A stretch of DNA of 64,000 nt from an uncultured delta proteobacterium (GTDB taxonomy: Bacteria > Desulfobacterota > Binatia > JACPRU01), in NCBI GenBank assembly GCA_963745025.1, contig CAVUWD010000016.1:1077507-1141506 (forward strand), in the 5' to 3' direction. The position numbers and the translations under genes were made by a program. Of this stretch, positions 34,751 to 53,142 are shown piece after piece. The notes under the pieces are model-generated. The model searched no databases, had not been told where the DNA came from, and saw only the letters and a program-made list of their open reading frames with translations. Within the stretch, counting starts at the first letter, position 1. Each line of letters starts with the position of its first letter.

Positions 34751-34763
34751 CGAGGAGAACACC

Positions 34764-35114: not shown

Positions 35115-35115
35115 C

Positions 35116-35409: not shown

Positions 35410-35440
35410 GGCTGCCGTCATGATTCGTGGGGGATAGGCT

Positions 35441-35510
35441 GTACTAGCGCCCGAAGTTGGATCTCGGACACCGGCACTGCCGCTCTACCGCTCTACGCCC
35501 GCTTTGACGG
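35441..35510 (+). repeat. 70-bp dispersed repeat copy B
   Basis: Direct repeat of 34,287-34,356. Confidence 0.9.
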
Positions 35511-35618
35511 GGCGCACAAAGCGACGCCGTTCAGCGCGGCTCCAGGCGGATGGCGACCGAACGCGAGGTGTCGGCGATCAGGCCGATCCAGCAGTCGGCG
35601 AAGCCGTACTTCTCGGCA
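35511..35618 (-). pseudogene. Second copy of the 3' end of the gene at 5860-6177
   Basis: AEKYGFADCWIGLIADTSRSVAIRLEPR*, near-identical to ~6090-6197 in inverted orientation. Confidence 0.85.
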
Positions 35619-35734
35619 AGGGGATAGCGCCTTCAAAATCAGCAGCAACCTCCGGAGCTTGTTCGCGCAACTCTTACGGGAACGGTCCCCCGAAAACGAT
35701 CGTTCCGCTATTCTGAAAGGATGGTCCCTCGGTG

Positions 35735-36244: not shown

Positions 36245-36502
36245 TCTCGTGAGGCTCGCTTCGATGCCCGCCTGGCTGTTGCTCCTGGTTGTCGCTCCCG
36301 CACTCGCAGGTCGTGGCGCTTTCTCTCATGGTCCAGGTGATCTCGCGACGGCAGCCGGTGGGTCTACGCGTGCTCGTTGCGCCGGTTTGCGCCGCTATTC
36401 GTGCTCGCGGTCCTCGTTTCCGCCATCTTGATCCGCATCAGGAGGTAGTCCTGTTCGCGGTTCGATTCCCGGTAGGACCACTTCCGATCCTGTTGGTCGC
36501 GC

Positions 36503-38299
36503 TCAGCCGCGCTTAACTTCGAGCTCGGCCCAGCGGGCGTAGAGACGCTCGACCGCGTGCTGGGCGTCGTCGAGGGCGCGACAGCGCGCGGCGAGCTCGG
36601 CCGCGTTCGAGGCGATCGTCGGATCGGTCGCCGCCGCCTCGCGGCTCGCAACCATGGATTCGGCGGCAAGAATGGCGGCTTCCATTCCCTCCCACTCGCG
36701 CTGCTCAGCCCACGTGAGCGAGCGCCTCGCGCTCTTCGCCGCCGCCGGCCGCGCCGATGGACGGGACCTCGTCTCGAGCGCATCCCGCTGCCGGCGTGCC
36801 GATTCCCACTGATCGTAGTCGGCGAACGGGGTGACGATTCCGCTGCCATCGAGCGCGAGCACGCTCGTCGTCACGCGCTCGAACAGAAAACGATCGTGGG
36901 TCACCAGCAGGACCGCGCCCGGAAACTCGACGAGGCTCTCCTCGAGTACCTCGAGGGTGGCGATGTCGAGATCGTTGGTCGGCTCGTCGAGCACGAGGAG
37001 ATCGGCGGGCCAGAGCATCAGGGCGGCGACGTGGACACGGGCCTGCTCGCCCCCCGAGAGGCGGCCGACCGGCATGGCGAGCGCCTCGGGCGGAAACAGG
37101 AATCGACGCGCCCAAGCGGCAACGTGCATCGGCTTGCCACCGAACACGACCTGATCCCCCTCCGGCGCCAGCGCGCGGCAGAGCGGAATCGAGGGGTCGA
37201 GCCCGCTGCGATGCTGGTCGAGCGTGGCGATGCGCAGACCCTCGGCGTGTTCGACGCGGCCGGCGTCGGGCTCGAGGTCGCCGGTGAGGAGCCGCAGCAG
37301 CGTCGACTTTCCGCTGCCGTTCGGACCGAGGAGCCCGAGGCGCGTTCCCGGAGAGAGGACGAGGCTCAGGTCGTCGATCAGGCGTCGCTCATTGAATCGC
37401 TTGGCGATGTGCTCGGCGACGACGAGGCGCTTCGTCCGCCGATCGGTCGCGGAGAACTCGATGCCCGCGGTCCTCGTCTCTTGCCTGGCTTGTACGCTCG
37501 CCAGCTCTTCGATCATCCGCCTCGCGTTCTGGATGCGCGCCTGCGCCTTCGTCGTTCGTGCCTTCGGGCCTCGCCGAAGCCACTCGACCTCGCGCCGCAC
37601 CCGGTTGGCCAGCGTCTCCTGCCAGCGTGCCTGCTCGCGCAGCGCCGCGTCCTTCCGTTCGAGGAACTCGCTGTAGCGGCCGCGGGTCTCGAAGAAGCCG
37701 CCCTCGTGGACGGGATCGAGGTCGATCACTCGCCGTGTCACGTGCTCGAGAAACCAGCGATCGTGGCTGACCACGAGAAATGCCGCCGGCTCCGTGGCCA
37801 GCAGCTCCTCGAGCCAGAGGATTCCCTCCAGGTCGAGATGATTCGTCGGCTCATCGAGAAGCAGAAGCTCCGGCACCGCGACGAGAGCGCGCGCGACGGC
37901 GAGGCGCTTCTGCCATCCACCGGAAAGCGTCGCCGGAGTCACATCGGGATCGGAGAAGCCCGAGCGCCCGAGGGTCACGCGAACGCGGGCCGTTCGGATG
38001 GCTTCGTCGAGGTCGCCGGCTGGGATTGCCGCCCCGAGGATCGCCGCTACCGTCTGGTCGCTCGGGAATTCCGGATGCTGCGGCACGTAGGCGAGACGGG
38101 AAAGGCGCCGGAAGCTGACCACTCCGGCGTCGGGCTCCTCAATTCCCGCGAGCACGCGAAGCAGCGTCGACTTGCCGCTGCCGTTCGGACCGACGAGCCC
38201 AATTCTATCCCCCTCCTCGATCGCCAACGAAAGATCGGCGAACAAGGGCTGCGCGCCGAAACGCTTCGAGATCTTCTGACAACCGAGCAGCGGGGGCAT
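36503..38299 (-). CDS. uup: ABC-F family ATP-binding protein (Uup-like)
   Basis: Two GPNGSGKST Walker A, LSGG signatures, LDEPTN; C-terminal coiled coil ending LYARWAELE. Confidence 0.9.
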   Translation of the reverse strand: MPPLLGCQKISKRFGAQPLFADLSLAIEEGDRIGLVGPNGSGKSTLLRVLAGIEEPDAGVVSFRRLSRLAYVPQHPEFPSDQTVAAILGAAIPAGDLDEAIRTARVRVTLGRSGFSDPDVTPATLSGGWQKRLAVARALVAVPELLLLDEPTNHLDLEGILWLEELLATEPAAFLVVSHDRWFLEHVTRRVIDLDPVHEGGFFETRGRYSEFLERKDAALREQARWQETLANRVRREVEWLRRGPKARTTKAQARIQNARRMIEELASVQARQETRTAGIEFSATDRRTKRLVVAEHIAKRFNERRLIDDLSLVLSPGTRLGLLGPNGSGKSTLLRLLTGDLEPDAGRVEHAEGLRIATLDQHRSGLDPSIPLCRALAPEGDQVVFGGKPMHVAAWARRFLFPPEALAMPVGRLSGGEQARVHVAALMLWPADLLVLDEPTNDLDIATLEVLEESLVEFPGAVLLVTHDRFLFERVTTSVLALDGSGIVTPFADYDQWESARRQRDALETRSRPSARPAAAKSARRSLTWAEQREWEGMEAAILAAESMVASREAAATDPTIASNAAELAARCRALDDAQHAVERLYARWAELEVKRG

Positions 38300-38866
38300 C
38301 GCCCCAGTTGTGGCAACGACTCGGCCGCCTGTCGATCCCATCAGCTAGCTTCGCGGCGCGTGCTACCGGCCAGGAACAGCCAGATCGACACTGACCGAAA
38401 GAGGGGTCAGACAACTGTTCTGATCACCGTCGTCACCGCCCCTGCAACGTCGATGGTGTTCTGTCGCGCGCTCGCATCCGGCAGGGCACCATCCTGAGTG
38501 TGCAGCCGGGCGCTCGTCTACACCTTGTGGTCACGGCAGCGCCGATCGCAGGGGGCCCGCGTCATCGCATTCGGCGCACTCCTCGCCGTCGATCTCATGG
38601 TACAGGCGCGAATCGCGGTGCCCCCTGCGACCGTCTGACGCTGGGGCGAAGCTGCCACCCTTTCGCCACCACTTCTCTTAGAAAGGTCTACACCGCTCTG
38701 GCGGCAGCGGTGTTCGGGGACCCACAACAGACAAGGGTTTGGATGACTTTAGACGGGAGTGCCCCTGGCCTTTTGGCGATTGGCAATCCTGCGTCTTAGG
38801 GACCTTGCTCGGCCGCCTCTCCGCGAGCTCAAACTCGAGAACAGCCCCATTTCAGCCCCACGAAGG

Positions 38867-38897
38867 AAAAAAGGGGTTACCCTGCTACGGGTAACCC
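38867..38897 (-). terminator. Rho-independent terminator beyond the displaced tRNA 3' fragment
   Basis: GGGTTACCC-N6-GGGTAACCC stem followed by U6 on minus strand. Confidence 0.7.
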
Positions 38898-38904
38898 ATT
38901 GATT

Positions 38905-38959
38905 TCTCAGAGCGGGAGACGGGGATTGAACCCGCGACCTTCTCGTTGGCAACGAGACG
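38905..38959 (-). repeat. att site: 55-bp copy of the tRNA-Gly 3' end
   Basis: Identical to 48,789-48,843. Confidence 0.95.
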
Positions 38960-38966
38960 CACGGCG

Positions 38967-39254
38967 CTATGCGGGATGATCCGCGCAGACCGGAGTTTCT
39001 GCTCGCTCGGCTGCCGTGATCGACCCACCCGAGACACTCGAAACCCGGTCGAGCTTTGGGAGGTATCCGAGCTCGTTCAGCCTCCAGAGTGCGCCCACGT
39101 GGAAGAGTATGGCGCGGTAGCCTCCGCCGGACAGACAGAGCGCGATCCCCGAGTCGGGAGCCGCATAAGGATCGTCCGTCTCGATGAACGTGACGGGTTC
39201 GGTGAGACTCGGGCCGGTAGGTGTGCTCGTACCTCCTCTGGCGTCGAGGCTCAT
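38967..39254 (-). pseudogene. N-terminal shard of a patatin/cPLA2-like phospholipase
   Basis: GIALCLSGGGYRA.LFHVGALWRLNE (oxyanion motif) and SSVSGGS (nucleophile Ser); truncated next to att. Confidence 0.8.
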
Positions 39255-39724
39255 CTCTCCGCCTACGCGGCTCTAGCTGTCAATGTTTCGGCCCGGTACG
39301 ACAACCAGCACGCGCGAAAGCCCAGAACAGCACGGTGGACCTCGGCCCACTCTTGGAGCGCCGCTGCATCGGCCGTCTCGGTTGACACGACCCACGAGCG
39401 AAGGATCCGCCCGCCCCGAGCCATCACCGTGATCCTGGTGAGGCCATCCGGGCAAGGTCGCAAACGATAGATCTCAAGAGACCTCCCCGGCTGATTGTCC
39501 GCAGACATTCCACACGGTGGCGCGCGGCGAGCAGAAAAAAGGCAGCGCGGAACGGCTCGAAGCGCACTGTTCCACGATGGAAGCTCTTCTCAATCGTATG
39601 GCGGATTCGGTCTCTGCCCGGAGAGGCGCGGACGCTCGGGCGGAAGCACATTAACCGAAGCCAACAATGGCCTGGGTCTGGGCGACGAAAACCTCGACGA
39701 GCGCACCGTCAACGTCGGCTAACC

Positions 39725-42700
39725 TCAGCGCGATTCCAACATACGCTCTAGTTTATCGGCCTGTGCCACGTACCAGTGCATCGCAAACGTACGCAGCGCA
39801 GCCGTCGCCTGCGCGAGCACGCTGTGCGCGGCCTCCGCGTCGCCATCGCGGGCGAGTACCTCCGCGAGCTGGAGACGCGTCACCGCGGTCTCTCGCATCG
39901 CCCCTCGCACCTCGGCCAGCTTTACGCCGGTCTCGAGATGCGCGCGGGCTTCCGCCAGCTGCGGCTCCGGCCCTCGCATACGGGCAATGCCAAGGGCGCG
40001 GTGGGCCTGAATCTCCCCGATCCGGTCTCCCACCTCGGCGCGGGCGAGGGCGCGGTGCGCGACGGAGACGGCCTCGTCTACCCGCCCGCCGAAGGCAAGC
40101 GCCTCGGCGAGACAGCTGCACTTGACCGACAGCGAGAGCCCGCCGCTCTTCTCGAACGCCGTAACGGCCTCTCGTAGCCGATTGAGGCCCACCGGATCCC
40201 CACGCCCGCACACGAGTGCGTACCCTTCCGTCGTTCGGCTCATCGCATCTATGTAGGGCGCCTCGATGGCGTCCGCGATCGCACGCATCTCCTTGCTGCG
40301 GCGGATGCACGCATCCCATTCACCTTGGAAGAGATCGACCCACGCCACTATCGTCAGGATCGAGCCTTCAAGCTGGCGTTGGCGGAGCTCGCGGACGATC
40401 GCGAGGGCCTCGCCGACGCGGGTGCGCGCGGTCGCAAAATCGCCGCGCTCGGCATCGACGAGCGCGAGGTAACCCAGGGCGTTGGCGATGACGATGGTGC
40501 GGCCGCTGGAGCCACCCTCGCGCCGCAGGTGGATCGCCCGAGAGAGGTGATCGGTCGCGAGCCCGAACTCGGCCTCATGGTAGAAGCTCTGGCCGAGATT
40601 GGTGTGGAGCTGCGAGATCAGGCGGTGATCGGCGGCGGCCTGGGCGAGCTCTAGGGCGCGCTCGAAGTGCTGCACGGCGGTCCGGTGATTGCCGAAGGTG
40701 TGCTCGAACCAGCCCATCCAGTAGATGGCGCGCGCGGCACCCCTCAGATACCCGAGGCGCTCGGCGATCTCGTAGGACGCCCGCAGCACGTCTTGGCGCG
40801 CTTCCGCCGGCTGGTACACGGTCACGGCGGCCCACTTCGCGCTGAGGTCGACGCGCTGACGGAGCTGGTCGGGGTCGCTCGCGAGCCGATCGAGCAGCTC
40901 GATCGCCCGCCGATACTGCGTCCGCGCGGCACCCAGCGAAAACGACGCGGCGGCCTTGTCGCCGGCTCGTCCGGCGAACAGCGCCGCGCGCTCGAAGTCC
41001 TCGCCACGTTCGTAGTGCTCGGTGAGCACTTCATAGTGCTCTGAGAGGCGATCCGCTGAGGAGCCCGCCTCGATTGACTGGCCGACTCTCCGATGGAGAT
41101 CGCGCCGACGACGCCGCAGGATGCTCTCGTACGCCACATCGCGCGTGATCGCATGCTTGAAACGATAGGTCGCGTCGCTGCTCCCCGAGTCCGGCACCTC
41201 GCTCACGAGTTCCTGCGCCTCGAGCCGTGCGAGAATTGTCGCGACCGCGCGCTCGCTCTGCGCGGCCACGGTGGCGAGAACACGGAGCGCGAAGCGCTCG
41301 CCCAGCACGGAGGCGAGCCGCAAGAGTTCTCGCTCCGGCGCGTCCAGCCGGTCGATGCGTGCGCGAATTACCGCCTGGACCGTGGGAGGCACCTCGAGCG
41401 CGTCGAATGCGAGGTCAAGGCCCGTCGCGGAGGCTTTGTCGACAAGCGACCGGCAGATCTCTTCCAGGAAGAGAGGGTTGCCGCCGGTCCACCCATGGAG
41501 GCGACGCACGGTCTCGTCCGAGACCGCCCCGAGACGGGACACGATCACCACGCGGGACTCGGAGGCGTCGAGCGGCCGCAGGTGCAAGCGCCACGGGTGC
41601 GGGCCACGCCACGGGGGCTCGCCTTCGGGGCGGTAGGTGGTCACCACCATGAGCGCGTGATTGGCGACCGTTGCGGCGAGCTGCTCCAGCGCGGCGGTGG
41701 ACGACTCGTCAGCCCAGTGCCAGTCCTCGAGTAGAACGACGAGGGGCTGGCGACGTGCGACCGCCGTGCAGAGCGCCACTAGACTGCGTATCATGGCCTC
41801 GCGCAAGAGATCGTCCCGTAGCTGCGGAGGCAGCGGGTAGTCGTCGGTTTGGAGCGACAGCAGCTGGAGGTAGAGCGGGAGGTGCTCGGCGAGCGCTGCA
41901 TCGATCTCTCGAAGCGCCGCCGCCGCGCTGTTCCGCTGCACGCTCGGAGCATCAGTATCGCGTATATCGAGCAGCTCACGGAGCAAGCGCAGAAAGGGCT
42001 GGAACGGTGGGGGTATTGCGGTGGCATCGCAGGCCGTCAGCACTACGCGGACGTCGTCCGGTACACGCGCACGCGCTTCGAAGAGGAAGCGACTCTTGCC
42101 GACGCCCGGTTCCCCGACGACTGCGATCCAGCGTCCATGACCGAGTCGCGCGTTCTGCAGGCATTCGTCGAGTTCGGCGTGCTCGCGCTCACGACCGCAA
42201 TATGCGCCGACGGCCTGCTCACGCATGTCCTCGAACAAGCCGCGCGGAATCGACCCCAACACGCGAAAGGCTTTGACGGGACATTCCTTGCCCCGCAGGG
42301 GCACCGACCCCAATGGCTCCATCGCGAAGTACCGCACGATGGCGTGATGGGTTTCGCCGTCGACCAGGATCTCGTCTGCTTCGGCCACACCGACTAGCCG
42401 GGCCGCAGTGTTGATGGTGTCGCCCGTCACCCCGAAGAGCCCTTCGCGCTTGTCGCGCACCTGCGTGACGATCACGCCGGTGCAGATCGCCGTATGCAGG
42501 GCCAGCCGCCGTCTTCCGAGCCTATCGAGCTCTGTGTCGACCGTCCGCACCAACTGGTGCAGCTCGAGCGCCGCCGTCACAGCGCGACGCGGGTCATTGT
42601 CGTGCGCGACGGGTACGCCGAAGAGGGCCTTCACGTCGTCGCCGGAAAACTGGTTCACGGTCCCGCCGTGCGCCTCGATGATCTGAGTGGCGCCGGTGAA

Positions 42701-42913
42701 GATCCGGTTCATGACTCCGACGACGTCCTCAGGGTCGAGCTGCTCGGTGAGGCGCGAGTAGCCTGCCAGGTCCGCGAAAAGCACCGTCGCCACCCGTCGC
42801 TCGCCGAACGGCAGGTCCCTTCCGGTACTCATATCGTCGCTGGCCGGCTTTCCCGGATCACGGGCACGCCCGATTGCCGCGCCCTCCTGACTCTCCTCTT
42901 TCTCACCCTTCAT
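39725..42913 (-). CDS. Class III adenylate/guanylate cyclase - STAND AAA ATPase - TPR protein
   Basis: TVLFADLAGY, FSGDD, GDTINTAARL; GEPGVGKS Walker A; LLEDWHWAD Walker B; GGNPLF; helical repeat C-terminus. Confidence 0.92.
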   Translation of the reverse strand: MKGEKEESQEGAAIGRARDPGKPASDDMSTGRDLPFGERRVATVLFADLAGYSRLTEQLDPEDVVGVMNRIFTGATQIIEAHGGTVNQFSGDDVKALFGVPVAHDNDPRRAVTAALELHQLVRTVDTELDRLGRRRLALHTAICTGVIVTQVRDKREGLFGVTGDTINTAARLVGVAEADEILVDGETHHAIVRYFAMEPLGSVPLRGKECPVKAFRVLGSIPRGLFEDMREQAVGAYCGREREHAELDECLQNARLGHGRWIAVVGEPGVGKSRFLFEARARVPDDVRVVLTACDATAIPPPFQPFLRLLRELLDIRDTDAPSVQRNSAAAALREIDAALAEHLPLYLQLLSLQTDDYPLPPQLRDDLLREAMIRSLVALCTAVARRQPLVVLLEDWHWADESSTAALEQLAATVANHALMVVTTYRPEGEPPWRGPHPWRLHLRPLDASESRVVIVSRLGAVSDETVRRLHGWTGGNPLFLEEICRSLVDKASATGLDLAFDALEVPPTVQAVIRARIDRLDAPERELLRLASVLGERFALRVLATVAAQSERAVATILARLEAQELVSEVPDSGSSDATYRFKHAITRDVAYESILRRRRRDLHRRVGQSIEAGSSADRLSEHYEVLTEHYERGEDFERAALFAGRAGDKAAASFSLGAARTQYRRAIELLDRLASDPDQLRQRVDLSAKWAAVTVYQPAEARQDVLRASYEIAERLGYLRGAARAIYWMGWFEHTFGNHRTAVQHFERALELAQAAADHRLISQLHTNLGQSFYHEAEFGLATDHLSRAIHLRREGGSSGRTIVIANALGYLALVDAERGDFATARTRVGEALAIVRELRQRQLEGSILTIVAWVDLFQGEWDACIRRSKEMRAIADAIEAPYIDAMSRTTEGYALVCGRGDPVGLNRLREAVTAFEKSGGLSLSVKCSCLAEALAFGGRVDEAVSVAHRALARAEVGDRIGEIQAHRALGIARMRGPEPQLAEARAHLETGVKLAEVRGAMRETAVTRLQLAEVLARDGDAEAAHSVLAQATAALRTFAMHWYVAQADKLERMLESR

Positions 42914-44435
42914 GGCGAATGGTCGCGAGGTACGAGAGCGCGCTCTTCGACGGTAGAAAAAAGTACTCTCCGCCGCGAACGGTCACGAAACGACGCAATG
43001 GCACGTCGGCGTTGCCGAGCACCAGGGGGCCGGAGGTCGTTGGTACGATGAACTGCCCGCCAGCCCGGGTGCGCCCGAGAAGCGGGTCGACTTCGTCCCA
43101 GCGCCCGTTGACGAAGGTGGGATCGTTCAGCCACCGTTGCTGTACGACCTCGAATTGCTGCTCGATGTCGGCGTTGAGGCAGGCGAAGTAGAGCCCGCGC
43201 GTGCCGGCAGGATCCGGCGTAGCGCCCGCCTTTTCCAGCATCAATTTCGGGTCAGGCCATCCCAGCACCGGGTTGCCGTAAGGGCGACCGCGTCGCAGGA
43301 TGCGGTGGCGGCGGACTGCAGCCAGCGACCGCCGCTCGGCAAGCCGCGGTATCGTGTCGCGAGGGTTCGCGCGGCGGATGTGGGCGCCAAACGGACAGGC
43401 GAACCCGTCCGCATCCTCAGCGTCGCGGAAGGCGAAGTTGTTGCTTCTTTCATCGACCTTGAAGAAGCTCGTCGGTTCCTCACGGGCAAGCGTCAGCGGA
43501 GCGCCGTTCCGCCACCGCCCAACGATCTTCGCGGCACGGTGCTCCATCGTCAGGACGTCGCTGGCACTGTCGCGCGCGAACTGCCAGAAGGCGATTACGT
43601 CCTGGTCGATCTCGCGGAGCACCAGATAGGTGCCGCCACGGCCTAAGTCGCAACGGCCGCCGTCGGGGGCGAGTCGGAGGCCAGCGGTGCGTGCGGTCGG
43701 TGTGGCACGCACCGTCGGCCCGCAAACGATCTCCCCCGCCTCGTTCGGATAGCCGAGAAGGAGCTCGCCTGGTGCCAAGAGGTCGGAGGCATCGTCCTCT
43801 GCCTGCAGGCGAAACCACGGTTGTGAGATGCCGTCGACGAAGCCGAAGTGCTCCCTTAGCCCCTCGAACTGCGGCGCCTTCGGCCAGGCGGCTCGGAGCC
43901 GTACCACCTCGCGGATATTGCAGGCCGCGGCGCACTTCTGCGCGTCGGCCAGTGGCTTATCAAGCGCAGTGTCGTCGGCCCCGAACAGCATGAGCACGGC
44001 GTCCACATGCTTCGGGTCCTCTTTGGGGAACTCGGGGTCCAGCGACTTCGGACGCTGCACATTTCCCCACCGCCAATGATCCGGGGCACACTCCCCGACG
44101 TCGCCCAAGTCCCTCGAGCGGTGCGCCGACCCGCTCATTCCCTCTCGAAACGCGGGGCCGAACTCAGCGAGCGCACGCGACTCGAGCCCGCATGCGGCAA
44201 ACCCAGGATGCGAGAACGCAACGTTCACGGACGTGTACCGCTTCCCCTCCGCCCGTCCGAAGCTCACCTGTTTCGCGGTCTCCGCAAGCCAGGCACCCAA
44301 GCGGTCTTTTGCATCGTCGAGGCGCAAGAGGAGATAGCACGCCTCGGGAAGGTCCCCGTGGCCGCTGAGCGCAAGGGACTGTATCTCTGTCAGGTCGACA
44401 TTGTAGGCCGCGTCCGGCGGCGGTCGTCTCGTCAT
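42903..44435 (-). CDS. DyP-type (dye-decolorizing) heme peroxidase
   Basis: EHFGFVDGISQP (distal Asp), CPFGAHIRRANPRD (proximal His), HRILRRGRPYG (distal Arg), GGEYFFLPS. Confidence 0.92.
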   Translation of the reverse strand: MTRRPPPDAAYNVDLTEIQSLALSGHGDLPEACYLLLRLDDAKDRLGAWLAETAKQVSFGRAEGKRYTSVNVAFSHPGFAACGLESRALAEFGPAFREGMSGSAHRSRDLGDVGECAPDHWRWGNVQRPKSLDPEFPKEDPKHVDAVLMLFGADDTALDKPLADAQKCAAACNIREVVRLRAAWPKAPQFEGLREHFGFVDGISQPWFRLQAEDDASDLLAPGELLLGYPNEAGEIVCGPTVRATPTARTAGLRLAPDGGRCDLGRGGTYLVLREIDQDVIAFWQFARDSASDVLTMEHRAAKIVGRWRNGAPLTLAREEPTSFFKVDERSNNFAFRDAEDADGFACPFGAHIRRANPRDTIPRLAERRSLAAVRRHRILRRGRPYGNPVLGWPDPKLMLEKAGATPDPAGTRGLYFACLNADIEQQFEVVQQRWLNDPTFVNGRWDEVDPLLGRTRAGGQFIVPTTSGPLVLGNADVPLRRFVTVRGGEYFFLPSKSALSYLATIRHEG

Positions 44436-45985
44436 GGAGGCCGTCCCTCAAGCATGTCCAGCCACTCGTCCACCTCGCTCGGAGTCGGGTAGCCATTGAG
44501 CAGCTGATGGATGCGCCAGTTGTCGTTGATCCGCCGAGTGGTGAAGCGCCGCGTCGGGTATCCACAGTACCAGACGTCGGTCGCAATCTGATGCACCCGG
44601 GCCGCGTTCTGGAATTCTTCGAGATCGCGCGCTCCATTGCCGAGGAACGCGGTCGTTGGCGGGAATCCCTCTGTGTTGCCCCAGATGGCGTTCAATCCCG
44701 GCGCGGCGTTATCGGAGAAGTCAGCGAAGTAGTCGAGCGCCCGGCCATCGTAGTTGGACATGAAGAGCAAACGCCGCCCGCCGTCGACGAGCCGCCACTG
44801 CGCGAAATGGATCGTCTCCACGCCCATCAGCCGTCCCTCGACATTGCGCCGGGCACGGAAGCCCACGACCCACAAGACAAGGCGTAAGGTCAGCGCCCGC
44901 AGAACCCCGCCCTTCACGTCCGTGACGATCGTCAAGCGATTCATGCCAGGACGTTCGTTGTCGGCCTCCTTGAGGTAGTTGTCATAGTCTTTGAAGGTCT
45001 GTCTTGGCACCGGGACCCAACGGAGGGCCTCGCGAGGCTCGACCACGAAGACGAAGGCGACAGCCCACAGAGCCGCTAGTATCGCGGCAATACCGACGAG
45101 CGCGGCGATGTAGGCGCCCGCAAATCCGAGGATCGGCTTCGCGCCGAGGGGGATGCGGAGCCATACGGCAAGGCAGGCGCCGAACCCTAAGACGCCGACA
45201 GAGACGCCGATGGACAGCGTAGCTGCAACCTGCGATTCGACAATCGCGGAGACTAGGTCGATGAGGAGGCCCCGGGTCGCTGGCTGCGGCGGCGCCTGCG
45301 CCGCGAATGCTGCGAGGTCCGGCGCCTCCTCCTTCAGCGTATCTTTCACGAAGAGCCGCGCCCGTAGAAACAGGTGAGGGTTCGGAAGGTCCTCGAGCCT
45401 TTTCGCGGCAGCCTGCTTCTGCTCGCGTACAAAGCCGGCGAGCCGCCGTGCAAGGAGTTCCTGCAGCTCGATCGCCTTTACCGAACGGTTGGGCGTACCC
45501 ATGTATTCCGCTACGGGGCCTCGTGCCACGTGACTTTCGAGGAAGCTTCGCACCGCGTTTGAGTCGCCGCTTCTGGGATAGGCGGGGCAGTGTGACCCGT
45601 AAATCCGGTCGAGCACATCACGCGCGTTTGTCACAAGCCGGTCGAGGTGCTGCTCGCGCGAACCGTCGAACACGGTGTACATCACGAGCGACGGCGAGAC
45701 CGCGAGCCCGCGACGTCGCACCCGGTCTGGTAGCACCACCCAGCGCGCGACGTGAAGGCCCTCGACCCGGGTAAGGGATGTCTGCCTACTCCGCACCTCC
45801 TTGTCTGTGGTCGCGAGGACCAATCGCAGCGGTTCGACGGCGCTCTCCTCAAGGGGTACGACCACGACGAGACTCGCGATGACGCTCCGCTCAGGCGAGC
45901 TCGCAGTAGCGAAGGAAGAGGACCGCCCCGTGGGGCGGTGTGCTTCGTCAAGCGCCGACTCGCGCCTCGCAGTCTCGGGCGACAT
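44432..45985 (-). CDS. DyP-associated membrane protein with two homologous soluble domains around two TM helices
   Basis: GLHVARWVV...VFDG and TIHFAQW...LLFMSNYDG repeats; GAGGAG RBS; ATGA overlap with DyP. Confidence 0.8.
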   Translation of the reverse strand: MSPETARRESALDEAHRPTGRSSSFATASSPERSVIASLVVVVPLEESAVEPLRLVLATTDKEVRSRQTSLTRVEGLHVARWVVLPDRVRRRGLAVSPSLVMYTVFDGSREQHLDRLVTNARDVLDRIYGSHCPAYPRSGDSNAVRSFLESHVARGPVAEYMGTPNRSVKAIELQELLARRLAGFVREQKQAAAKRLEDLPNPHLFLRARLFVKDTLKEEAPDLAAFAAQAPPQPATRGLLIDLVSAIVESQVAATLSIGVSVGVLGFGACLAVWLRIPLGAKPILGFAGAYIAALVGIAAILAALWAVAFVFVVEPREALRWVPVPRQTFKDYDNYLKEADNERPGMNRLTIVTDVKGGVLRALTLRLVLWVVGFRARRNVEGRLMGVETIHFAQWRLVDGGRRLLFMSNYDGRALDYFADFSDNAAPGLNAIWGNTEGFPPTTAFLGNGARDLEEFQNAARVHQIATDVWYCGYPTRRFTTRRINDNWRIHQLLNGYPTPSEVDEWLDMLEGRPP

Positions 45986-45993
45986 CGTGCTCC

Positions 45994-47367
45994 TCAATCA
46001 AAAACGAGCTGGAAGCTCGTCGGCCATCGACTTTTCACCCTTCGCAGGGTGCCGGCCAGACCCGGCGCCCGCCGGACGTTCCGGAGTGAGAACACGGCGG
46101 CGACCATCTCGGTCATGAGGATGGTGGCGATCGGGCGTTGCGGCGTCGCCGCGACGCACTGATGCTGACCCGTGCCGAATACGAGGTACTGACTCGCCGG
46201 GCGGCCTGCGAGAAAGGTGCCCGGATGAGGGGCAAGTCTCGGATCGAAGGCCACGGCGAGCGTGACCGCAATGACGGTCGCGTTCGCCGGAACAGCCACC
46301 CGTCGCCCGCTCCCGGCCTCGAGCACGACACCGTCAGGGCAGTGTCGGATCAGACCCGGCGGAAAGGGCGAGAAGCGCGCAGCCTCCAGCACGTGCCGCT
46401 CAAGGAGGTTGTCGACGGGAGCCCCCGCGTCTCGCTGCCGGTGGTGCTCGAGCGCCAACGTACGGACGGTGTCGAGGTCGCGCGCCGAAAGGTCGAACAG
46501 GCGATCCATGACGTCGAGGTACTGCGAGGTCGTCGGTACGAGGAGGCCCAAGATGGTTCCGCCCAACACCGTACAGAGCTCGTCGTCGGTCCAACGCGCC
46601 GCGTCGGTCTTGACGAGCCGATCGACCACCGTGTCCCCGCTCGCCTGGCCAGCCGCCTCGCGTTTCTCGCGGATCACCTGGAGCAGGTGTTCTCGGATCT
46701 GCTGCCCAGCGTCCTCCGCGTCTGCCTTGAGGTGGCCCGTCAACAGCTCGACGTTGAAGATGTAGGAGGCCGTTCGCTGGCAGAGGCCCAGCAAGGTGGC
46801 ACCCGCGCGGCCGGCAGACTCGATCTCGCGAACGCCGAAGTAGTCCTCGGTGAAACGAGAGATCGCAATCTGGGCCACGGACACGAGATCGACGGATCCG
46901 CCTCCGTCATTGGCGCGAGGCGAGGAGGGATGCTGGACGCCGAAGGTCGCCGCCTCCCGCGCGAGAGCTCGAATCTGGTCGCAATCGTCCGGCCGCAGAA
47001 CGCCGCGTAGTAGTTCGCTCTGCCGCGCGTACTCCTGCGAGTCGAAATCGAGGCCGAGGAGAAAGGGCCCGAACGTCTCGCGCATTTTCTTTTCGTAGAG
47101 GTAGACCCTGAACTTCTCGTAGTCGGCGAGGACGCGACAGACTCCCTTGGCGTCGAAGACGAGAACGAGCGGCGGCAGATCGCGGCGGGTTAAAACCCCC
47201 TTCTCCCTCTCGACGAACGCCCGCAGAGCACTCTGGAGCCATTGCGGGACGACCCAGACCGGGATGAGCACCCGGAGCACCGCGAAGCCCCAGCAGGTCA
47301 GCGTGCGTACAGCGCGACGAACAAGGCGCCTCACCGAAAGCTCCTTCTCCGACTCTGAGCGGAGCAA
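45994..47367 (-). CDS. Atypical cytochrome P450 (start uncertain)
   Basis: EAAR ExxR motif, FGTGQHQCVA heme-Cys loop; I-helix GTILGLLVPTT lacks A/G-G-x-D/E-T. Confidence 0.85.
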   Translation of the reverse strand: MLRSESEKELSVRRLVRRAVRTLTCWGFAVLRVLIPVWVVPQWLQSALRAFVEREKGVLTRRDLPPLVLVFDAKGVCRVLADYEKFRVYLYEKKMRETFGPFLLGLDFDSQEYARQSELLRGVLRPDDCDQIRALAREAATFGVQHPSSPRANDGGGSVDLVSVAQIAISRFTEDYFGVREIESAGRAGATLLGLCQRTASYIFNVELLTGHLKADAEDAGQQIREHLLQVIREKREAAGQASGDTVVDRLVKTDAARWTDDELCTVLGGTILGLLVPTTSQYLDVMDRLFDLSARDLDTVRTLALEHHRQRDAGAPVDNLLERHVLEAARFSPFPPGLIRHCPDGVVLEAGSGRRVAVPANATVIAVTLAVAFDPRLAPHPGTFLAGRPASQYLVFGTGQHQCVAATPQRPIATILMTEMVAAVFSLRNVRRAPGLAGTLRRVKSRWPTSFQLVFD

Positions 47368-47811
47368 ATCCGGATCGTGGCGACAGCGGATTCTTTATAA
47401 CACTCTGGATCCTGGAGCAAGGCGGGAGACTGTCGAGGCTGCCGAAAAGATCACTGGATACTTCCCCGGTGCGGATCGGCGCACCCGAGCCGATACCACG
47501 CGGACCGCGCAAGGCCGGATGCCCGTCAGGGAGTTCGGGCGTGGGCGCCGATGCCACGCTCGGTCGTGAACGAGCGCAAGCCGGCACCCTTTTGCGCTGC
47601 CCGAGGCCAAGCAGCACGAATCCCGCAAGACGTAGGCCGCGGAGGTTCTCTCCATCCAGTCGGTCCGCTGCCTGCGCGAAGCTACCCGCAGGACTGTGAT
47701 CCGGGTCAAGCCGTCCGGGCCGGCCCCAAGCGGGCTGAAGCAAAGTTCTTCACGCCGCGGCGGGGGAGGGGGACGCTCGCCGAGCGACTCCGATCCCGTG
47801 GCTACCGGCGG

Positions 47812-48340
47812 CTACGCTTGGAGCAGCTCCGATGAGAACAAGGCGCTCGTCCGGAAGGTGCGGCGGCGGTCACGCGTGGATTGCACGATCGTGTCGCGGT
47901 TCTCGTGGCGCTGGTACTGCGCGGCGATTCGCCTAACCGATTCCTCTTCCATCGCCTGAAGCAGTTCGTCCTCCGACTGACCGGGCTTCTGCACGGCCGC
48001 GAAGATGCCGCGCGCGCCCGAGTCGCCATGCTGGTTAGCGAGATCGAGCATGAACGCGACGCTCCGCTCGCTCCAAACCGCTCGGCGTAGCTCCGTACCT
48101 TCTCGAGCGAGGCACCGAAGGCGCGAAGCGCCTCTTGCACCTGCGCGCGCTGGAACGACGGATCGAGCGCGGCCCGTTGAAGCGCGCAATCCAGTCGTCG
48201 GCGGTGAGGTCGAAGCGCAGATCTGTTGTGTGGCCCTGGGCATCGACGCCCCCGTGTGCCCTCGCCACGTGGGCGAGAACCCCTTGCGCGAGCGCCTCGT
48301 CCTTGGCGGCGAAGATCTCCGCGTGTTCGTCGTCAGAGTA
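47812..48340 (-). pseudogene. Multiply frameshifted hypothetical gene (possibly lysozyme-like/peptidoglycan-associated C-terminus)
   Basis: Protein-like segments across frames: DWIARF, FQRAQVQEALRAF, SERSVAFMLDLANQHGDSGA. Confidence 0.35.
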
Positions 48341-48752
48341 ATCGAGACCACGAGACCCGTTTCGTACGAGACACTTTCCAGCCGGTTGGTTTTCCTATGC
48401 GGCTCGTCGATTCATCCGTTTCCGTCGTTTGAGGGTCGCCTGCTTGAGTCGAAGTACCAGCTGCGCTGCAACTTGTTTCGGTCGCGCATTCTCGGGATGC
48501 CGGCGAAGCTGGCCGGGCTACTCGTCGGGGTCGACAACGCGAACGTGATCAAGGACAGGATCGAGATCGAAGCACTCCAGGCTGTCAGGAGCTGTGCTCC
48601 AGTTGTTCCGATCCTAGAGGCACCAGTCTCGTGGCATTCGTTCCAGTAAGTCCATGGATGAGGGAGCATTTTCGGCGCTTCTGCCCGCCGATACCGAATC
48701 TGTCTTGCCGGCATCGTCCAATGAATCTTGCCCTTTCTTGCCCGTGAAGCGC

Positions 48753-48785
48753 CGCGAGGCTAGCCGATTAACGGCTAACCTCGCG
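48753..48785 (-). terminator. Inverted repeat just downstream of the intact tRNA
   Basis: CGCGAGGCTAGCCG-ATTAA-CGGCTAACCTCGCG (13/14 paired). Confidence 0.5.
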
Positions 48786-48794
48786 AAATCTCAG

Positions 48795-48866
48795 AGCGGG
48801 AGACGGGGATTGAACCCGCGACCTTCTCGTTGGCAACGAGACGTTCTACCGCTGAACTACTCCCGC
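48795..48866 (-). tRNA. tRNA-Gly (GCC), CCA not encoded
   Basis: GCGGGAGTAGTTCAGCGGTAGAACGTCTCGTTGCCAACGAGAAGGTCGCGGGTTCAATCCCCGTCTCCCGCT; acceptor GCGGGAG/CTCCCGC. Confidence 0.97.
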
Positions 48867-49103
48867 GTATTCGTTCTTACACGAATTATACTACAGCTCC
48901 ACTCAGAATTTCCTCGACCTCCCGTTCCATCTCCCAGCGCGATTCGGCCCTATTTGCCACCTGGCAGAGCGGTTCGCAACCCCAGCTCCCGGCCACCGAG
49001 ACGGCGACGTCGGTGGCAGTGGGAGCACTCGGTCGGCAACGAGGCGTTCTGCCGCTGACTACGATGGCGGACAGCACCGCGGGGTCGCTTGTCGAAGAAC
49101 TCC

Positions 49104-49622
49104 TCACGGTGTCGGCGTCGGTGCCGGCCCCGTCGTCGAGGTCGGGAACGGAGCCGGCGTCAGCGTTGGCGGTGGCGCTACAGGGAACGGCTTGCCGGGC
49201 GGCAGGCTCGCGCCGTACTCCAGCTGCACGCTCCCCTGGCTGCAATCGATCGCCAGATTGTCGAGCGGAGCTGGATCGTCCGCGTCGGGGATGCCGTCGT
49301 TGTCGGTGTCGTCGTTCAGCGGGTCGGTCTCGCCGAGACAGGGCTCCCAGAACCCGTTGTTGTTGCAATCCTCGCAACCGGTGCACGTCGGCTGCTGGTG
49401 GTCCGGCTGGCCGTCGCACAGCCGGTCGCTGTCCGTATCGGTAATCAGGAAATCCGCTTCGCCGGGATCGTATGCGAAGTTGTCGTTGGTATCTTCGGTG
49501 GCGTCGGTGAGCCCGTCATCGTCGAAATCCGACCCGGACCCCGAGCTGACACATGCGTAGAGCCACAGCGCTACGACGAGGGCGATCGCCGCCGCCGCTC
49601 CCAGCTTCTGCTTCGCGCTCAT
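49104..49622 (-). CDS. Lipoprotein with Ca-binding DxDxDG (thrombospondin-3-like) repeats
   Basis: LYAC lipobox; DFDDDGLTD, DTDSDRLCDG, DTDNDGIPD; Pro/Thr tail; ATGA overlap with pgsA. Confidence 0.7.
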   Translation of the reverse strand: MSAKQKLGAAAAIALVVALWLYACVSSGSGSDFDDDGLTDATEDTNDNFAYDPGEADFLITDTDSDRLCDGQPDHQQPTCTGCEDCNNNGFWEPCLGETDPLNDDTDNDGIPDADDPAPLDNLAIDCSQGSVQLEYGASLPPGKPFPVAPPPTLTPAPFPTSTTGPAPTPTP

Positions 49623-50242
49623 GCCATTCCGCTCCCCGGGTGATGCGCCCGGATCTCGCGCGCCACCCGCGCGGTGTAGAGGCTCCCCGACCAAAGGCTC
49701 ACGACCGTCGAGATCCACAAGAAGTACATGCCGGCGAGATGAAAATCGATACACACGTAGGTGTAGTGCAGGAGCAGGCCGTGGAGCGCGAACATCTGGA
49801 AGATCATCTTGTACTTGCCGAGCTCCTCCGCCGGGATGACGATGTCTTCGCCCGAGGCGATCGCGCGCAGACCCGTGACGGCCATCTCACGGCCGACGAT
49901 GATCACGACGAGCCATCCCGGCAGGCGCGGCTCCCGATCCATCCCGACGAGCATGATGAGAATGGCGACGACGAGCAGCTTATCCGCGAGCGGATCGAGG
50001 AACTTGCCGAGCGTCGTGGTCAGCGAGTACTTGCGAGCGAGTTGCCCGTCCCAGTAATCGGTCAGGCAGGCGAAGAAAAAGAAGCCCGTCGCCAGTGCGC
50101 CCCGCGCGGCGCCTTCGTCCCGCAGCAAGAGAACGATGATCACGACGACCGCGATCCGGCCGAGCGTGAGTAGGTTCGGGAGATTGTTCCACACGATTGA
50201 GCGGAGCGGCGAACGAGGCGACGGCCCGCTGTCCTTCTTCAA
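49619..50242 (-). CDS. pgsA: CDP-diacylglycerol--glycerol-3-phosphate 3-phosphatidyltransferase (start uncertain; alternative GTG at 50,194)
   Basis: NLPNLLTLGRI, TDYWDGQLAR...LGKFLDPLADK, REMAVTGLR, GKYK. Confidence 0.92.
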   Translation of the reverse strand: MKKDSGPSPRSPLRSIVWNNLPNLLTLGRIAVVVIIVLLLRDEGAARGALATGFFFFACLTDYWDGQLARKYSLTTTLGKFLDPLADKLLVVAILIMLVGMDREPRLPGWLVVIIVGREMAVTGLRAIASGEDIVIPAEELGKYKMIFQMFALHGLLLHYTYVCIDFHLAGMYFLWISTVVSLWSGSLYTARVAREIRAHHPGSGMA

Positions 50243-50351
50243 GATGCGGAACTTAGAGGATTGGCGGCAGCGACGCAAATCACGGCGCCTGCAATCAGGG
50301 CGCCTGCGACCTTGAATCCCGTGTGCGTCGTTGTCATCATCCACGACCCTC

Positions 50352-51971
50352 ATGCGTGTTGAGAGCGACACGCTCGTCGTCGGCGGTGGCATCGCGGGTC
50401 TGTTCTTCGCCCTCAAGGCGGCGACGCGTGGTACCGTCACGCTCCTCACCAAAGACCGCCTGCCGATCAGCAACACCGCGTATGCGCAGGGGGGAATCGC
50501 CTCGGTCTGGAGTCCGGAGGACTCCTTTGCGGCTCACGTGGAAGACACGCTCGAGGCGGGAGCGGGACTCTGCCACCGCGACGTCGTCGAGCTCGTCGTT
50601 CGCGAAGGCCCCGACCGCATCCGGGAGCTGATTGCCCTCGGAACGAGCTTCTCGACCCGCGCCGACCAAGAGGATCGCGAGTACGATCTCGGACGCGAGG
50701 GCGGTCACTCGCACCGCCGCATTCTCCATGCCTTCGATGCCACCGGCTGGGAGATCATCCGAGCGCTCATTGCGGTCGTGCGCGCAGAGCCGGCAATCGT
50801 GGTGCTCGAGAACCACATCGCGATCGATCTCATGCTCGAGCCGGCGGCGGACGAAGCTCCTCCCACCTGTTGGGGAGCCTACGTCCTCGACCGCACGACG
50901 AACGAGGTGAAGAGCTTCGTCGCGCGCGCCACGATCCTCGCGACCGGCGGCGCGGGCAAGGTTTACCTCTATACGTCCAATCCCGACATCGCTACCGGCG
51001 ATGGCATCGCCATGGCCTGCCGCGCGGGGGCGGCGGTCGGCAACATGGAGTTCTTCCAGTTCCATCCCACGTGCCTCTACCATCCTCTCGCCAAGTCGTT
51101 CTTGCTCACCGAGGCGCTGCGCGGCGAAGGGGCGATCCTCAGGCTTCCCGACGGCACACCCTTCATGAAACGCTACGACTCCCGCGGCGAGCTCGCCCCG
51201 CGTGACATCGTCTCGCGCGCCATCGATCACGAGATGAAGGTGCACGGCTACGAGCACGTCTATCTCGACATCTCGCACCGCGATCCGGAGTTCGTCCGCA
51301 GCCGTTTTCCGACCATCTACCAACGCTGCCTCGAGTTCGGCCTCGACATGACGAAAGCCCCGCTCCCCGTCGTGCCCGCCGCGCACTATTGCTGCGGCGG
51401 GGTGGTCACCGACGAACACGCGCGAACGACCATCTCTAGACTCTACGCCTGCGGCGAGGTGGCGATGACGGGTCTGCACGGCGCGAACCGCCTCGCCTCG
51501 AATTCTCTCCTCGAGGCCCTGATCTTCGCCGAGCGTGCCTATCGAGACGTCACGGACCGGCTGGGCTCCGATTCCCTCCGGCCGCCGGAGCTTCCGCCCT
51601 GGAATCCCGGCAGCGCGGTCGACAGCGACGAATCCGTGGTGGTCACGCAAAACTGGGACGAGATCCGCCGGCTCATGTGGAACTACGTCGGCATCGTCCG
51701 CACGAACCGTCGCCTCGAGCGCGCGCGCAAACGAATCCGCATGCTGCAAGACGAGATCCACGACTATTACTGGAACTTCCTCGTCACCTCCGATCTCGTC
51801 GAACTTCGCAACATCGCACTGGTGGCCGAGCTGATCATCGAATCGGCGATCGGCCGGCGAGAGAGCCGGGGCCTCCACTTCAATCGAGACACTCCGGAGC
51901 GGGATGACGCGCACTGGCTCCGCGACACGGTGCTGACGCGCGAACGCCTCAAGCAGCTGCGGGGACGATGA
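50352..51971 (+). CDS. nadB: L-aspartate oxidase
   Basis: GGGIAG, NTAYAQGGIA, REGGHS.RRILH, QFHPT, EALRGEG, LHGANRLASNSLLE, RESRGLH. Confidence 0.96.
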   Translation: MRVESDTLVVGGGIAGLFFALKAATRGTVTLLTKDRLPISNTAYAQGGIASVWSPEDSFAAHVEDTLEAGAGLCHRDVVELVVREGPDRIRELIALGTSFSTRADQEDREYDLGREGGHSHRRILHAFDATGWEIIRALIAVVRAEPAIVVLENHIAIDLMLEPAADEAPPTCWGAYVLDRTTNEVKSFVARATILATGGAGKVYLYTSNPDIATGDGIAMACRAGAAVGNMEFFQFHPTCLYHPLAKSFLLTEALRGEGAILRLPDGTPFMKRYDSRGELAPRDIVSRAIDHEMKVHGYEHVYLDISHRDPEFVRSRFPTIYQRCLEFGLDMTKAPLPVVPAAHYCCGGVVTDEHARTTISRLYACGEVAMTGLHGANRLASNSLLEALIFAERAYRDVTDRLGSDSLRPPELPPWNPGSAVDSDESVVVTQNWDEIRRLMWNYVGIVRTNRRLERARKRIRMLQDEIHDYYWNFLVTSDLVELRNIALVAELIIESAIGRRESRGLHFNRDTPERDDAHWLRDTVLTRERLKQLRGR

Positions 51972-53142
51972 CCTCGGCCCCCTTGGCCGCCTCGCAGATC
52001 CACACGCCGGGGATCACCCCCGTCGCCTCGCGGTAGGCCCGCGACAACTCGGTCGCGAATCGTTCGGCACGCGACGCGGCGACGAGGCTCACCGTACAGC
52101 CGCCGAAGCCCGCGCCGGTCAGACGCGCCCCGTAGCATCCCTCGAGCCCGACGGCGGCGTCGACGAGCACATCGAGCTCGTCGCAGCTGACCTCGTAAAG
52201 GTCTCGCCCGCTTCGATGAGCGGCGGTCATCGCGCATCCGAGCGCGGCGGCATCGCCGCGCTCGACGTCGGGAATCACCGCCTGAACGCGGGCGATCTCC
52301 TCGACCACGTGGCGCGCGCGCTGGAACAGCAGGGCGGGCAGCGCGTCGCGCCCCCGCTCGAGCTCGGCCGGGGCGACGTCGCGGAGGCTGCGAATCGCGG
52401 GCATCGTTCGCCGCAGAATCTCCACGGCTTCTTCACATTGGCGCCGGCGCAGATTGAACTCGGATTCGGCGAGCTGGCGCCGGACCTTGGTATCGGCGAC
52501 GACGACGACCGTCGCCGCAGGCAGTGGAATCGCCCTCCATTCGAGGCTTCGGCAATCGAGCAGCAACGCATGCCCGCGCTTCCCGTGGAGGCTCGTGAAG
52601 GGATCCATCAGTCCGCAGGCGACCCCGACGTAGACGTTCTCCGCCTGCTGGCAGAGGCGAGCGAGATCGAGGCCACCGATTTTCCACCCGCCGAGGGCTC
52701 GCCAGAGGACGGCGAAGGCCACCTCGATCGCGGCCGATGACGACAGTCCCGCCCCGATTGGCACGTCGGAAGCCAGCGCGACGTCGACTCCCGGCACGCG
52801 GAGGCCCTGACCATGGAGCACCGACGCAACTCCGGCGGGATAGAACGCCCACGGAGCGAGCGGCCTTCCGTCTTGGTCGGTCCTCAAAGCGACGTGCTCC
52901 ATCCGAAAGCTCGTTCGCTCAGCGAGATCGGCCGCCTCGATCGTGATGGCGTCGTCGGCGACAGGAGCCGCCGCGATCCAGGCGGCACGATCGATCGCCG
53001 CCGGCAGCACGAGGCCCGCGTTGTAATCGACGTGCTCGCCGATCAGGTTCACGCGTCCGGGGGCGCGCACGACGAGCGCCGGCTCGCGCCCGAATCGCTC
53101 CCGGAACGCTCGCAGCGCTCGCCCTTTCGCGGTCGACGGCAT
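51949..53142 (-). CDS. galK: Galactokinase
   Basis: APGRVNLIGEHVDYN, PIGAGLSSSAA, CGLMD, GARLTGAGFGG. Confidence 0.96.
   Translation of the reverse strand: MPSTAKGRALRAFRERFGREPALVVRAPGRVNLIGEHVDYNAGLVLPAAIDRAAWIAAAPVADDAITIEAADLAERTSFRMEHVALRTDQDGRPLAPWAFYPAGVASVLHGQGLRVPGVDVALASDVPIGAGLSSSAAIEVAFAVLWRALGGWKIGGLDLARLCQQAENVYVGVACGLMDPFTSLHGKRGHALLLDCRSLEWRAIPLPAATVVVVADTKVRRQLAESEFNLRRRQCEEAVEILRRTMPAIRSLRDVAPAELERGRDALPALLFQRARHVVEEIARVQAVIPDVERGDAAALGCAMTAAHRSGRDLYEVSCDELDVLVDAAVGLEGCYGARLTGAGFGGCTVSLVAASRAERFATELSRAYREATGVIPGVWICEAAKGAEVIVPAAA

Follow-up and report, generated by a model that had tools for sequence, protein, structure and literature searches.

A deeply divergent bacterial cytochrome P450 without the acid-alcohol pair, encoded in a conserved cassette with a DyP-type peroxidase, may be driven by peroxide

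A cassette of four genes lies on the minus strand of a 64,000-nucleotide stretch of DNA from an uncultured delta proteobacterium (the window, by which we mean that whole stretch). Its first gene, at 45994–47334, encodes a divergent cytochrome P450 of 446 residues from a GTG codon, and is followed by genes for a membrane protein of an unannotated family, a DyP-type haem peroxidase and a nucleotide cyclase protein. An initial annotation of the P450, given for 45994–47367, named no strand. The open frame at that position exists on the minus strand only, and its upper end is a TTG at 47367. From a reading of the sequence, the probable start is the GTG at 47332–47334, which stands six bases past a Shine-Dalgarno-like GGAGAAGGAG (47341–47350, minus strand). 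The 446-residue product is identical to the database protein P0004.

The P450 scored 19.1 bits against the Pfam p450 profile (PF00067), below the cut-off of 22.8, and the match was confined to residues 321–405. Despite this score, the protein is in our view a highly divergent P450 and not an outsider to the superfamily. Among the relatives found by profile search, 29 of 30 long members reached PF00067 at E ≤0.001. A sequence search of the PDB gave a best match of E 5.4e-5, and all 60 matches listed were P450s by name. An AlphaFold2 model made from six input sequences (predicted local distance difference test, pLDDT, 77.7; predicted template modelling score, pTM, 0.83) aligned with P450BioI (3ejb_F) at Z 28.6 over 351 residues, with a root-mean-square deviation (rmsd) of 3.2 Å (VIA-align). 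CYP109B4 and CYP134A1 orthologues stood level with P450BioI within one Z unit, and Z was at least 8 for 1000 of the 1000 chains compared. Foldseek returned 1438 matches at E ≤0.001, with a CYP134A1 orthologue (8a91, E 1.1e-9) ranked first. Going by the model, the best fold matches are soluble bacterial P450s of the class I type. As judged from sequence and predicted structure together, 45994–47334 encodes a real, complete haem-thiolate P450 of a deeply divergent clade.

The initial annotation had described the haem loop and the ExxR motif as intact, and the translation bore this out. The haem-thiolate loop FGTGQHQCVA (46150–46179, minus strand) is of canonical length, carries Cys393 at 46156–46158, and reads Ala at the last position of FxxGxxxCxG. 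The K-helix ExxR (EAAR) lies at 46375–46386 (minus strand). In a hidden Markov model (HMM) alignment of 158 rows, the ExxR Glu was present in 153, its Arg in 154 and the loop Cys in 154. The I-helix stretch, LGGTILGLLVPTTSQY (46519–46566, minus strand), has Val266-Pro267 at the acid-alcohol positions. Residues G258, G259, T260, G263, V266, P267, T268 and Q271 were invariant in six of six family members, as were E317, R320, F386, G387, G389, H391 and C393. Since these relatives are only 41–47% identical to the window P450, the motifs are not chance strings.

The register of the I-helix was read from a profile-profile alignment (hhalign) of the subfamily (11 sequences) with the other eight P450s of the genome, each of which contains AGx[DE]T. 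The profiles aligned with a probability of 99.75% over 403 columns. G263 fell on the Gly of AGxET, L265 was inserted, the acid was matched by V266 and the Thr by P267, and T268 came next; the haem loop aligned with canonical P450 loops with no gap. The alignment with the genome's canonical P450s therefore placed no canonical Asp/Glu-Thr pair in the window P450, in agreement with the initial annotation, which had reported an I-helix without A/G-G-x-D/E-T, and the same holds throughout the clade described below. In the 158-row HMM alignment the register was uncertain by one residue, and the alternative pairs Pro with the acid and T268 with the alcohol. We preferred the hhalign register, obtained against canonical P450s, to that of the HMM alignment. 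Whichever register applies, the window P450 lacks the acid of the acid-alcohol pair as far as the aligned sequences tell.

The second gene (44432–45985, minus strand) encodes a membrane protein that we model as two ABM-fold halves around a two-helix hydrophobic hairpin. Its likely start is the ATG at 45983–45985 behind GAGGAG, in a frame open from a TTG at 45997, which leaves a gap of 8 bases after the P450 stop. The protein had no Pfam, NCBIfam or PDB sequence match, its ESM Atlas matches were 'hypothetical protein' clusters with no shared Pfam family, and its approximately 22 close homologues are all unnamed. The two halves are homologous to each other (hhalign probability 92.8%, E 3.9e-7, 141 columns), and the hydrophobic segments span residues 257–285 and 286–322. 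With a structural model of pLDDT 69.2, weak in the C-terminal half, Foldseek found nothing at E ≤0.001, and the ABM fold was recovered by the VIA wide search only. There the WhiE-ORFI ABM/SchA-like protein (9lmn_B) matched at Z 14.1 over 221 residues, Abx(+)O (9ltx_A) at Z 10.7, two tandem-ABM 'putative monooxygenases' at Z 8.7 and 8.2, and many single ABM domains at Z 5–7. On the model, the product of 44432–45985 likely shares the ABM (ferredoxin-like alpha+beta) fold, as a fold and not as family membership. A complex prediction for the ABM protein with the P450 scored 0.02 against a mark of 0.32, which gives no verdict for or against binding. The protein is represented in a public collection by P0159, of 305 residues, which has 100% identity over 59% of the open reading frame (ORF; 44432–45997). 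The P0159 gene was probably called too short, because homologues of 481–540 residues span 90–99% of the ORF.

The third gene (42903–44435, minus strand) encodes a class V (long) DyP-type haem peroxidase of 510 residues, and starts in an ATGA overlap with the preceding stop. The protein matched DyP_N and Dyp_perox_C, scored 98.1 bits against TIGR01413, just below the cut-off of 100.5, and aligned full length to the solved chains 8re3 and 8re2 (E 5.2e-39 for 8re3, residues 13–506). Its stretches FGFVDGISQP, GAHIRRANPRD and HRILRRGRPYG aligned to matching stretches of 8re3, and we take these to be the GxxDG motif (distal Asp), the proximal-His motif and the distal-Arg motif. On this assignment of the motifs, the window DyP is by its sequence a full-length class V DyP with its catalytic motifs intact. 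It has no hydrophobic segment.

The last conserved gene (39725–42913, minus strand) encodes a class III nucleotide cyclase-AAA_16 (STAND-type NTPase)-TPR protein, with Pfam matches to Guanylate_cyc, AAA_16 and TPR_12; translation may in fact begin at Met28, near 42832. Because only the 8-base gap with its GAGGAG precedes the second gene and the ATGA overlap the third, we read the cassette genes from their sequence as tightly, translationally coupled. A known defence system was considered and rejected: PADLOC had no defence-system model for the three enzymes, and matched the regulator to generic PycC-type cyclase and TPR models only.

The four genes recur in identical order at two other loci, L001, in a metagenome-assembled genome labelled Deltaproteobacteria, and L051; a third locus, L052, holds the first three cassette genes and then reaches its contig end. 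The split into three separate enzyme ORFs is common to all three loci. Identity to the window proteins across loci was 43–56% for the P450, 48–53% for the ABM protein and 41–52% for the DyP. In a tblastx comparison of 34000–53000 with L001 and L051, only fragments of 24–30 bits were found outside 39731–47329. Thus, with flanks that are not conserved at either locus, the cassette consists of four genes. The regulator was 61% identical to its counterpart in L001 (630 of 1033; L001:8719–11802) and 62% to that in L051 (L051:8873–11974), and so is better conserved than the three enzymes with their 41–56%. Regulators are not usually so well conserved, and the sequences point to a tightly constrained sensing role.

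Upstream of the P450, approximately 1.7 kb (47368–49100) contain no ORF that passes a codon-bias filter based on GC at third codon positions (GC3). The longest ORFs there, 47812–48351 (minus strand) and 48005–48649 (plus strand), have no Pfam match. Neither L001 nor L051 shares the segment, which may be the remains of a gene or an extended regulatory region. About 2 kb upstream on the same strand are an unassigned ORF of 216 residues (49104–49754, minus strand) and a CDP-alcohol phosphatidyltransferase (49619–50476, minus strand). The latter, an enzyme of phospholipid synthesis near a cassette that putatively acts on lipid, is likewise not conserved in L001 or L051.

Close relatives of the window P450 are few. 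A search of 5.8 billion clusters yielded the small family of six proteins at 41–47% identity introduced above. A scan of 185,579 species genomes returned 42 loci, of which one (L001) spans the whole P450. The remaining 41 match no more than 204 of the 446 residues, in most cases the C-terminal 50–100, at 24–43% identity, and we presume from these partial alignments that they are ordinary P450s. Two of 74 loci from a metagenome scan, L051 and L052, were close relatives. A profile search without a word index gave 2008 representatives at E ≤0.001, including 155 at E ≤1e-30; in sequence terms, the close family of six is the tip of a large family.

To place the window P450 within this family we used a FastTree phylogeny of 162 P450 domains, with Shimodaira–Hasegawa-like (SH-like) support. 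It was nested in sets of 10, 14 and 41 rows, with SH-like values of 100, 97 and 96. Motifs were read in 144 of the 162 tree rows, the other 18, mostly added fusion proteins, being absent from that alignment. Within the clade of 41, the I-helix stretch carried a [DE][TS] pair in no row and Pro in 37. Outside it, the pair was found in 48 of the 103 rows with the motif read. Because none of the 41 members of a supported clade keeps the pair, its loss is, on the aligned sequences, an old and fixed character of that clade.

Fusion proteins among the relatives bear on the association of P450, ABM protein and DyP. A search from the DyP side, limited to proteins of 894–2550 residues, gave 1526 relatives among 8000 scored candidates, and the best 120 of these were scanned with HMMs from the window's own families. 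ABM-type domains stood directly upstream of DyP in 96 of the best 120. Six were P450-ABM-DyP single chains of 1402–1528 residues, in the window gene order, and both ABM halves were detected in five of the six. A further 12 had the order DyP-P450, and 12 held DyP plus unassigned sequence only. Precomputed Pfam annotation of the same 120 showed patatin (PF01734) in six and catalase (PF00199) in two; catalase or patatin fusions are among P0261, P0302, P0197, P0233, P0254, P0257, P0275 and P0298. Many DyP relatives of 1630–1715 residues have about 700 unassigned residues after the DyP.

From the P450 side, 30 long relatives contained p450 (29), DyP_N (8), Dyp_perox_C (8), GST_C_2 (6), An_peroxidase (1) and SnoaL (1), and no reductase, flavodoxin or ferredoxin family was among the nine families found in them. 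In P0144 (979 residues) the P450 comes first and an animal-haem-peroxidase domain follows. GST_C_2 fusions of the wider P450 family include P0034 and P0049, and a SnoaL-like fusion was seen once in the 30. The I-helix reads Pro-Thr-Asn in the five P450-ABM-DyP single chains that could be aligned; the sixth, P0248, fell below the alignment threshold. Taken as sequence evidence, the fused relatives are Rosetta-stone support for a coupling of P450, ABM and DyP, and the patatin and catalase fusions are a hint that the substrate is a lipid.

Fusions of a P450, a transmembrane region and a DyP have been listed as DyP subclass V4, and as unexplored, in the accessible text of Yoshida and Sugano 2022 (PMC9719856). 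The cassette has the same parts, a P450, a membrane segment and a class V DyP, in order from 47334 to 42903 on the minus strand, and the five aligned P450-ABM-DyP single chains share its Pro-Thr in the I-helix. It differs from V4 as described there in that the unit is three coupled genes, not one polypeptide, and in that the 'transmembrane region' is, in our models, a tandem ABM fold with a hairpin, of which the accessible text of PMC9719856 makes no mention. The window P450 is also only 26–31% identical to the P450 domains of these single chains. By sequence, the locus is thus the split-gene form of a known, uncharacterised fusion type, with a P450 from a Pro clade made up entirely of stand-alone proteins. 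In the openly accessible literature we found no characterised DyP-P450 system, and only PMC9719856 names the fusions.

The best reading of the locus, to which we would give about an even chance, is that the P450 is driven by peroxide and acts alongside the DyP. Because the oxygen-activating residues are lost, and because a DyP, a membrane protein and a regulator are its constant company, the P450 probably belongs to an unstudied bacterial peroxide-using system. We are equally divided, leaning neither way, on whether it is the first subunit of a three-enzyme unit, in a split-gene form of the DyP V4 fusions, and not a stand-alone monooxygenase. Such a unit would be cytoplasmic and membrane-tethered, made up of the P450, the tandem ABM protein with its membrane hairpin and the class V DyP. 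The ABM protein would hold a lipophilic substrate at the membrane. Instead of relying on O2 and ferredoxin, the P450 would be oxidised by a peroxide, either H2O2 or an organic hydroperoxide that is probably a lipid one. It and the DyP would act one after the other, where the membrane faces the cytoplasm, on a lipophilic compound that may derive from lipid. Sensing or control of the P450/DyP process would fall to the cyclase-STAND-TPR protein. Within this scheme, peroxide use, a lipid substrate, the reaction order and the part given to the cyclase are what we infer.

Several observations weigh against a peroxide-driven P450 in such a unit. The haem loop of the P450 model (residues 370–399) has pLDDT below 50, and the length of the Cys loop is that of the ordinary redox-partner type. 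In the FastTree, only stand-alone proteins make up the 41-row clade; fused forms branch in other parts of the family, with 24–31% identity to the window P450. All 12 DyP-P450 fusions that were aligned retain D/E-T, so a link to DyP can occur without loss of the pair, and the two are only partly correlated. The lipid link comes from fusions in distant relatives, not from the window locus. The genome encodes Fer2 proteins that could serve in trans. Lastly, a hydrophobic, Pro-containing I-helix is shared by the characterised enzyme CYP134A1, which is nevertheless driven by electron transfer according to the accessible text of PMC7731078.

The initial annotation had taken the lack of a nearby electron-transfer gene as an argument for independence from redox partners. 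Among the ORFs scanned, which cover approximately 26 to 64 kb of the window, no electron-transfer gene lies near the P450. The only flavoproteins in that range are of the aspartate-oxidase type (50331–51971) and the Pyr_redox_2-rhodanese type (62013–63752), and the other ORFs are housekeeping or unrelated genes (ABC-F ATPase, CDP-alcohol phosphatidyltransferase, galactokinase, purF/L/Q/C/B, MsrB, cupins and luciferase-like oxygenases). The observation thus stands for this range, but it fails as an argument: the absence of a ferredoxin neighbour is uninformative, because it is common to all eight canonical P450s of the genome. In the host genome (G000; contigs C1, C11, C13 and C19), which is 92.65% complete, Fer4_15 and Fer4_13 each had 0 matches and Fer2 was found in four places; none of the eight canonical P450 loci has one of these within 200 kb. 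In the same genome, a canonical P450 (AGHDT) at L048 (G000:C5:228868–232341) stands in an open frame of approximately 690–712 residues and may be fused to another domain.

These observations bear most directly on an alternative that we consider possible, if rather doubtful, namely that the window encodes an ordinary O2- and NAD(P)H-dependent P450 that is served by unlinked housekeeping redox partners and delivers protons as CYP134A1 may do, by a substrate-assisted or water-mediated route. The DyP would then act on the P450 product or protect against peroxide from uncoupling, a part of the alternative that we hold with the same doubt. CYP134A1 (CypX), the cyclo-Leu-Leu oxidase of Bacillus and Staphylococcus, is described in the accessible text of PMC7731078 as having a hydrophobic oxygen-activation site with 'an unusual proline' where an alcohol is otherwise conserved, and its conversion of cyclo-Leu-Leu (cLL) as 'mediated by electron transfer'. 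It is a tied top fold match of the window P450 (VIA-align Z 27.4–28.0, about 355 residues, rmsd 3.3–3.4 Å) and shows the same replacement; it differs in sharing only 14–17% identity with the window P450 and in having no DyP/ABM context. The step from a lost motif to a P450 that needs no electron transfer, as taken in the initial annotation, therefore does not hold, and the I-helix argument alone is an unsafe basis for reductase independence. An ordinary P450 is also consistent with the canonical length and form of the Cys loop, with the retained pair in all 12 DyP-P450 fusions, and with partners acting in trans, which are the rule in this genome since no Fer2, Fer4_13 or Fer4_15 gene is near its eight canonical P450s. 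It is opposed by the 30 fused relatives, which bring DyP, GST and An_peroxidase domains and no reductase, flavodoxin or ferredoxin, by the lack of any match to a 3Fe-4S-type P450 ferredoxin family in the 92.65% complete genome, and by a clade in which all 41 members lack the pair. The conclusion of the initial annotation, peroxide use with no redox partner, draws its support from grounds other than its own argument: the DyP cassette, its conservation, the fusions and the absence of a reductase from the 30 long relatives.

The initial annotation had also proposed a specific kind of peroxide use. In hydroperoxide isomerases of the CYP74/CYP8A type, an Asn of the I-helix supplies a catalytic amide above the haem. 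An isomerase or lyase of the CYP74, CYP8A or fungal diol synthase kind, with a fatty-acid hydroperoxide as both oxidant and substrate, would be a subset of the peroxide-driven reading, and we think it unlikely. The I-helix LGGTILGLLVPTTSQY contains no Asn, although Gln271, which is one turn past Pro267 and invariant in six of six members, could act as such an amide. The loss of the acid-alcohol pair across the clade fits this proposal, as do the patatin and catalase fusions in the DyP clade and P0144, whose animal-haem-peroxidase domain belongs to the family of the fungal dioxygenase domains. The accessible text of PMC5764023 describes CYP74 as lacking AGxD/ET, as having a nine-residue haem-loop insertion and as needing neither O2 nor NADPH. 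AGxD/ET is absent from the window P450 too, but its haem loop is without the nine-residue insertion. No CYP74, CYP8A or linoleate diol synthase (LDS) chain was among the 60 sequence matches or the 50 fold matches listed per search, and the cassette holds no lipoxygenase or dioxygenase gene that would make the hydroperoxide. As a statement of family membership the proposal finds no support, given the ungapped haem loop and best fold matches that are bacterial class I P450s; as an activity it may still apply.

An analogy with the fungal Ppo enzymes, which like LDS are two-haem fusions of a dioxygenase-peroxidase domain and a P450 isomerase domain, has been drawn before. In its accessible text, PMC9719856 suggests for the DyP-P450 fusions either H2O2 scavenging or use, or a Ppo-like two-step reaction. 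The cassette resembles Ppo/LDS, along the lines of that analogy, in coupling a haem peroxidase-type protein to a reductase-less P450, and a relative of its P450, P0144, is fused to an An_peroxidase domain. It differs from Ppo/LDS in that the partner is a DyP (a dimeric alpha+beta barrel), not an animal-haem-peroxidase fold, that the proteins are separate and that a third, ABM-fold membrane protein is added.

The CYP152 peroxygenases (P450 BS-beta, OleT) have Pro at the alcohol position, use H2O2 as oxidant, and hold the fatty-acid carboxylate with an Arg at the acid position. The window P450 differs from them in having Val266 at the acid position, and no CYP152 chain was among the sequence and fold matches listed. 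We did not find the Arg-Pro statement in the accessible text of PMC9112060.

A peroxide-scavenging or stress device, with two non-specific haem proteins, no dedicated product and a cyclase that reports oxidative stress, is one of the two options offered for the fusions in the accessible text of Yoshida and Sugano (PMC9719856) and is favoured by DyP-catalase fusions in 2 of the best 120 long DyP relatives, but we consider it improbable, since the distal-pocket motif (G263, V266, P267, T268 and Q271, six of six) and the conserved ABM domains suggest a defined substrate, and three folds in fixed order, repeatedly fused, would be unusual for simple scavenging.

A peroxide-driven P450 acting alongside a DyP could be taken one step further, in a proposal that we regard as speculative and quite unlikely. 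The cassette would be a bacterial generator of oxylipin-type signals, built from parts unlike those of eukaryotes: the ABM protein would lift a lipid or fatty acid out of the bilayer, the DyP would make a lipid hydroperoxide by way of a protein radical, in the role of the Ppo dioxygenase domain, the P450 would rearrange it without reductant, and the cyclase would read the product, giving a cyclic-nucleotide signal as the output. To our knowledge, DyP peroxidases have mostly been studied as oxidisers of dyes and lignin, with their cellular role largely unknown, and the reductase-independent P450s on record come chiefly from plants, animals and fungi.

Compared with what is in print, our analysis adds that the P450-membrane-DyP unit occurs as separate genes too, that the 'transmembrane region' of the fusions is, on the models, a duplicated ABM-fold domain, and that loss of the acid-alcohol pair appears from the alignments to be fixed in a whole P450 clade. 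A compact operon thereby links a P450 without the pair, a complete DyP, an unannotated membrane protein and a cyclic-nucleotide protein, and provides a directly testable system. If the oxylipin proposal is true, the cassette would give a first physiological role for DyP peroxidases and a new class of reductase-independent bacterial P450.

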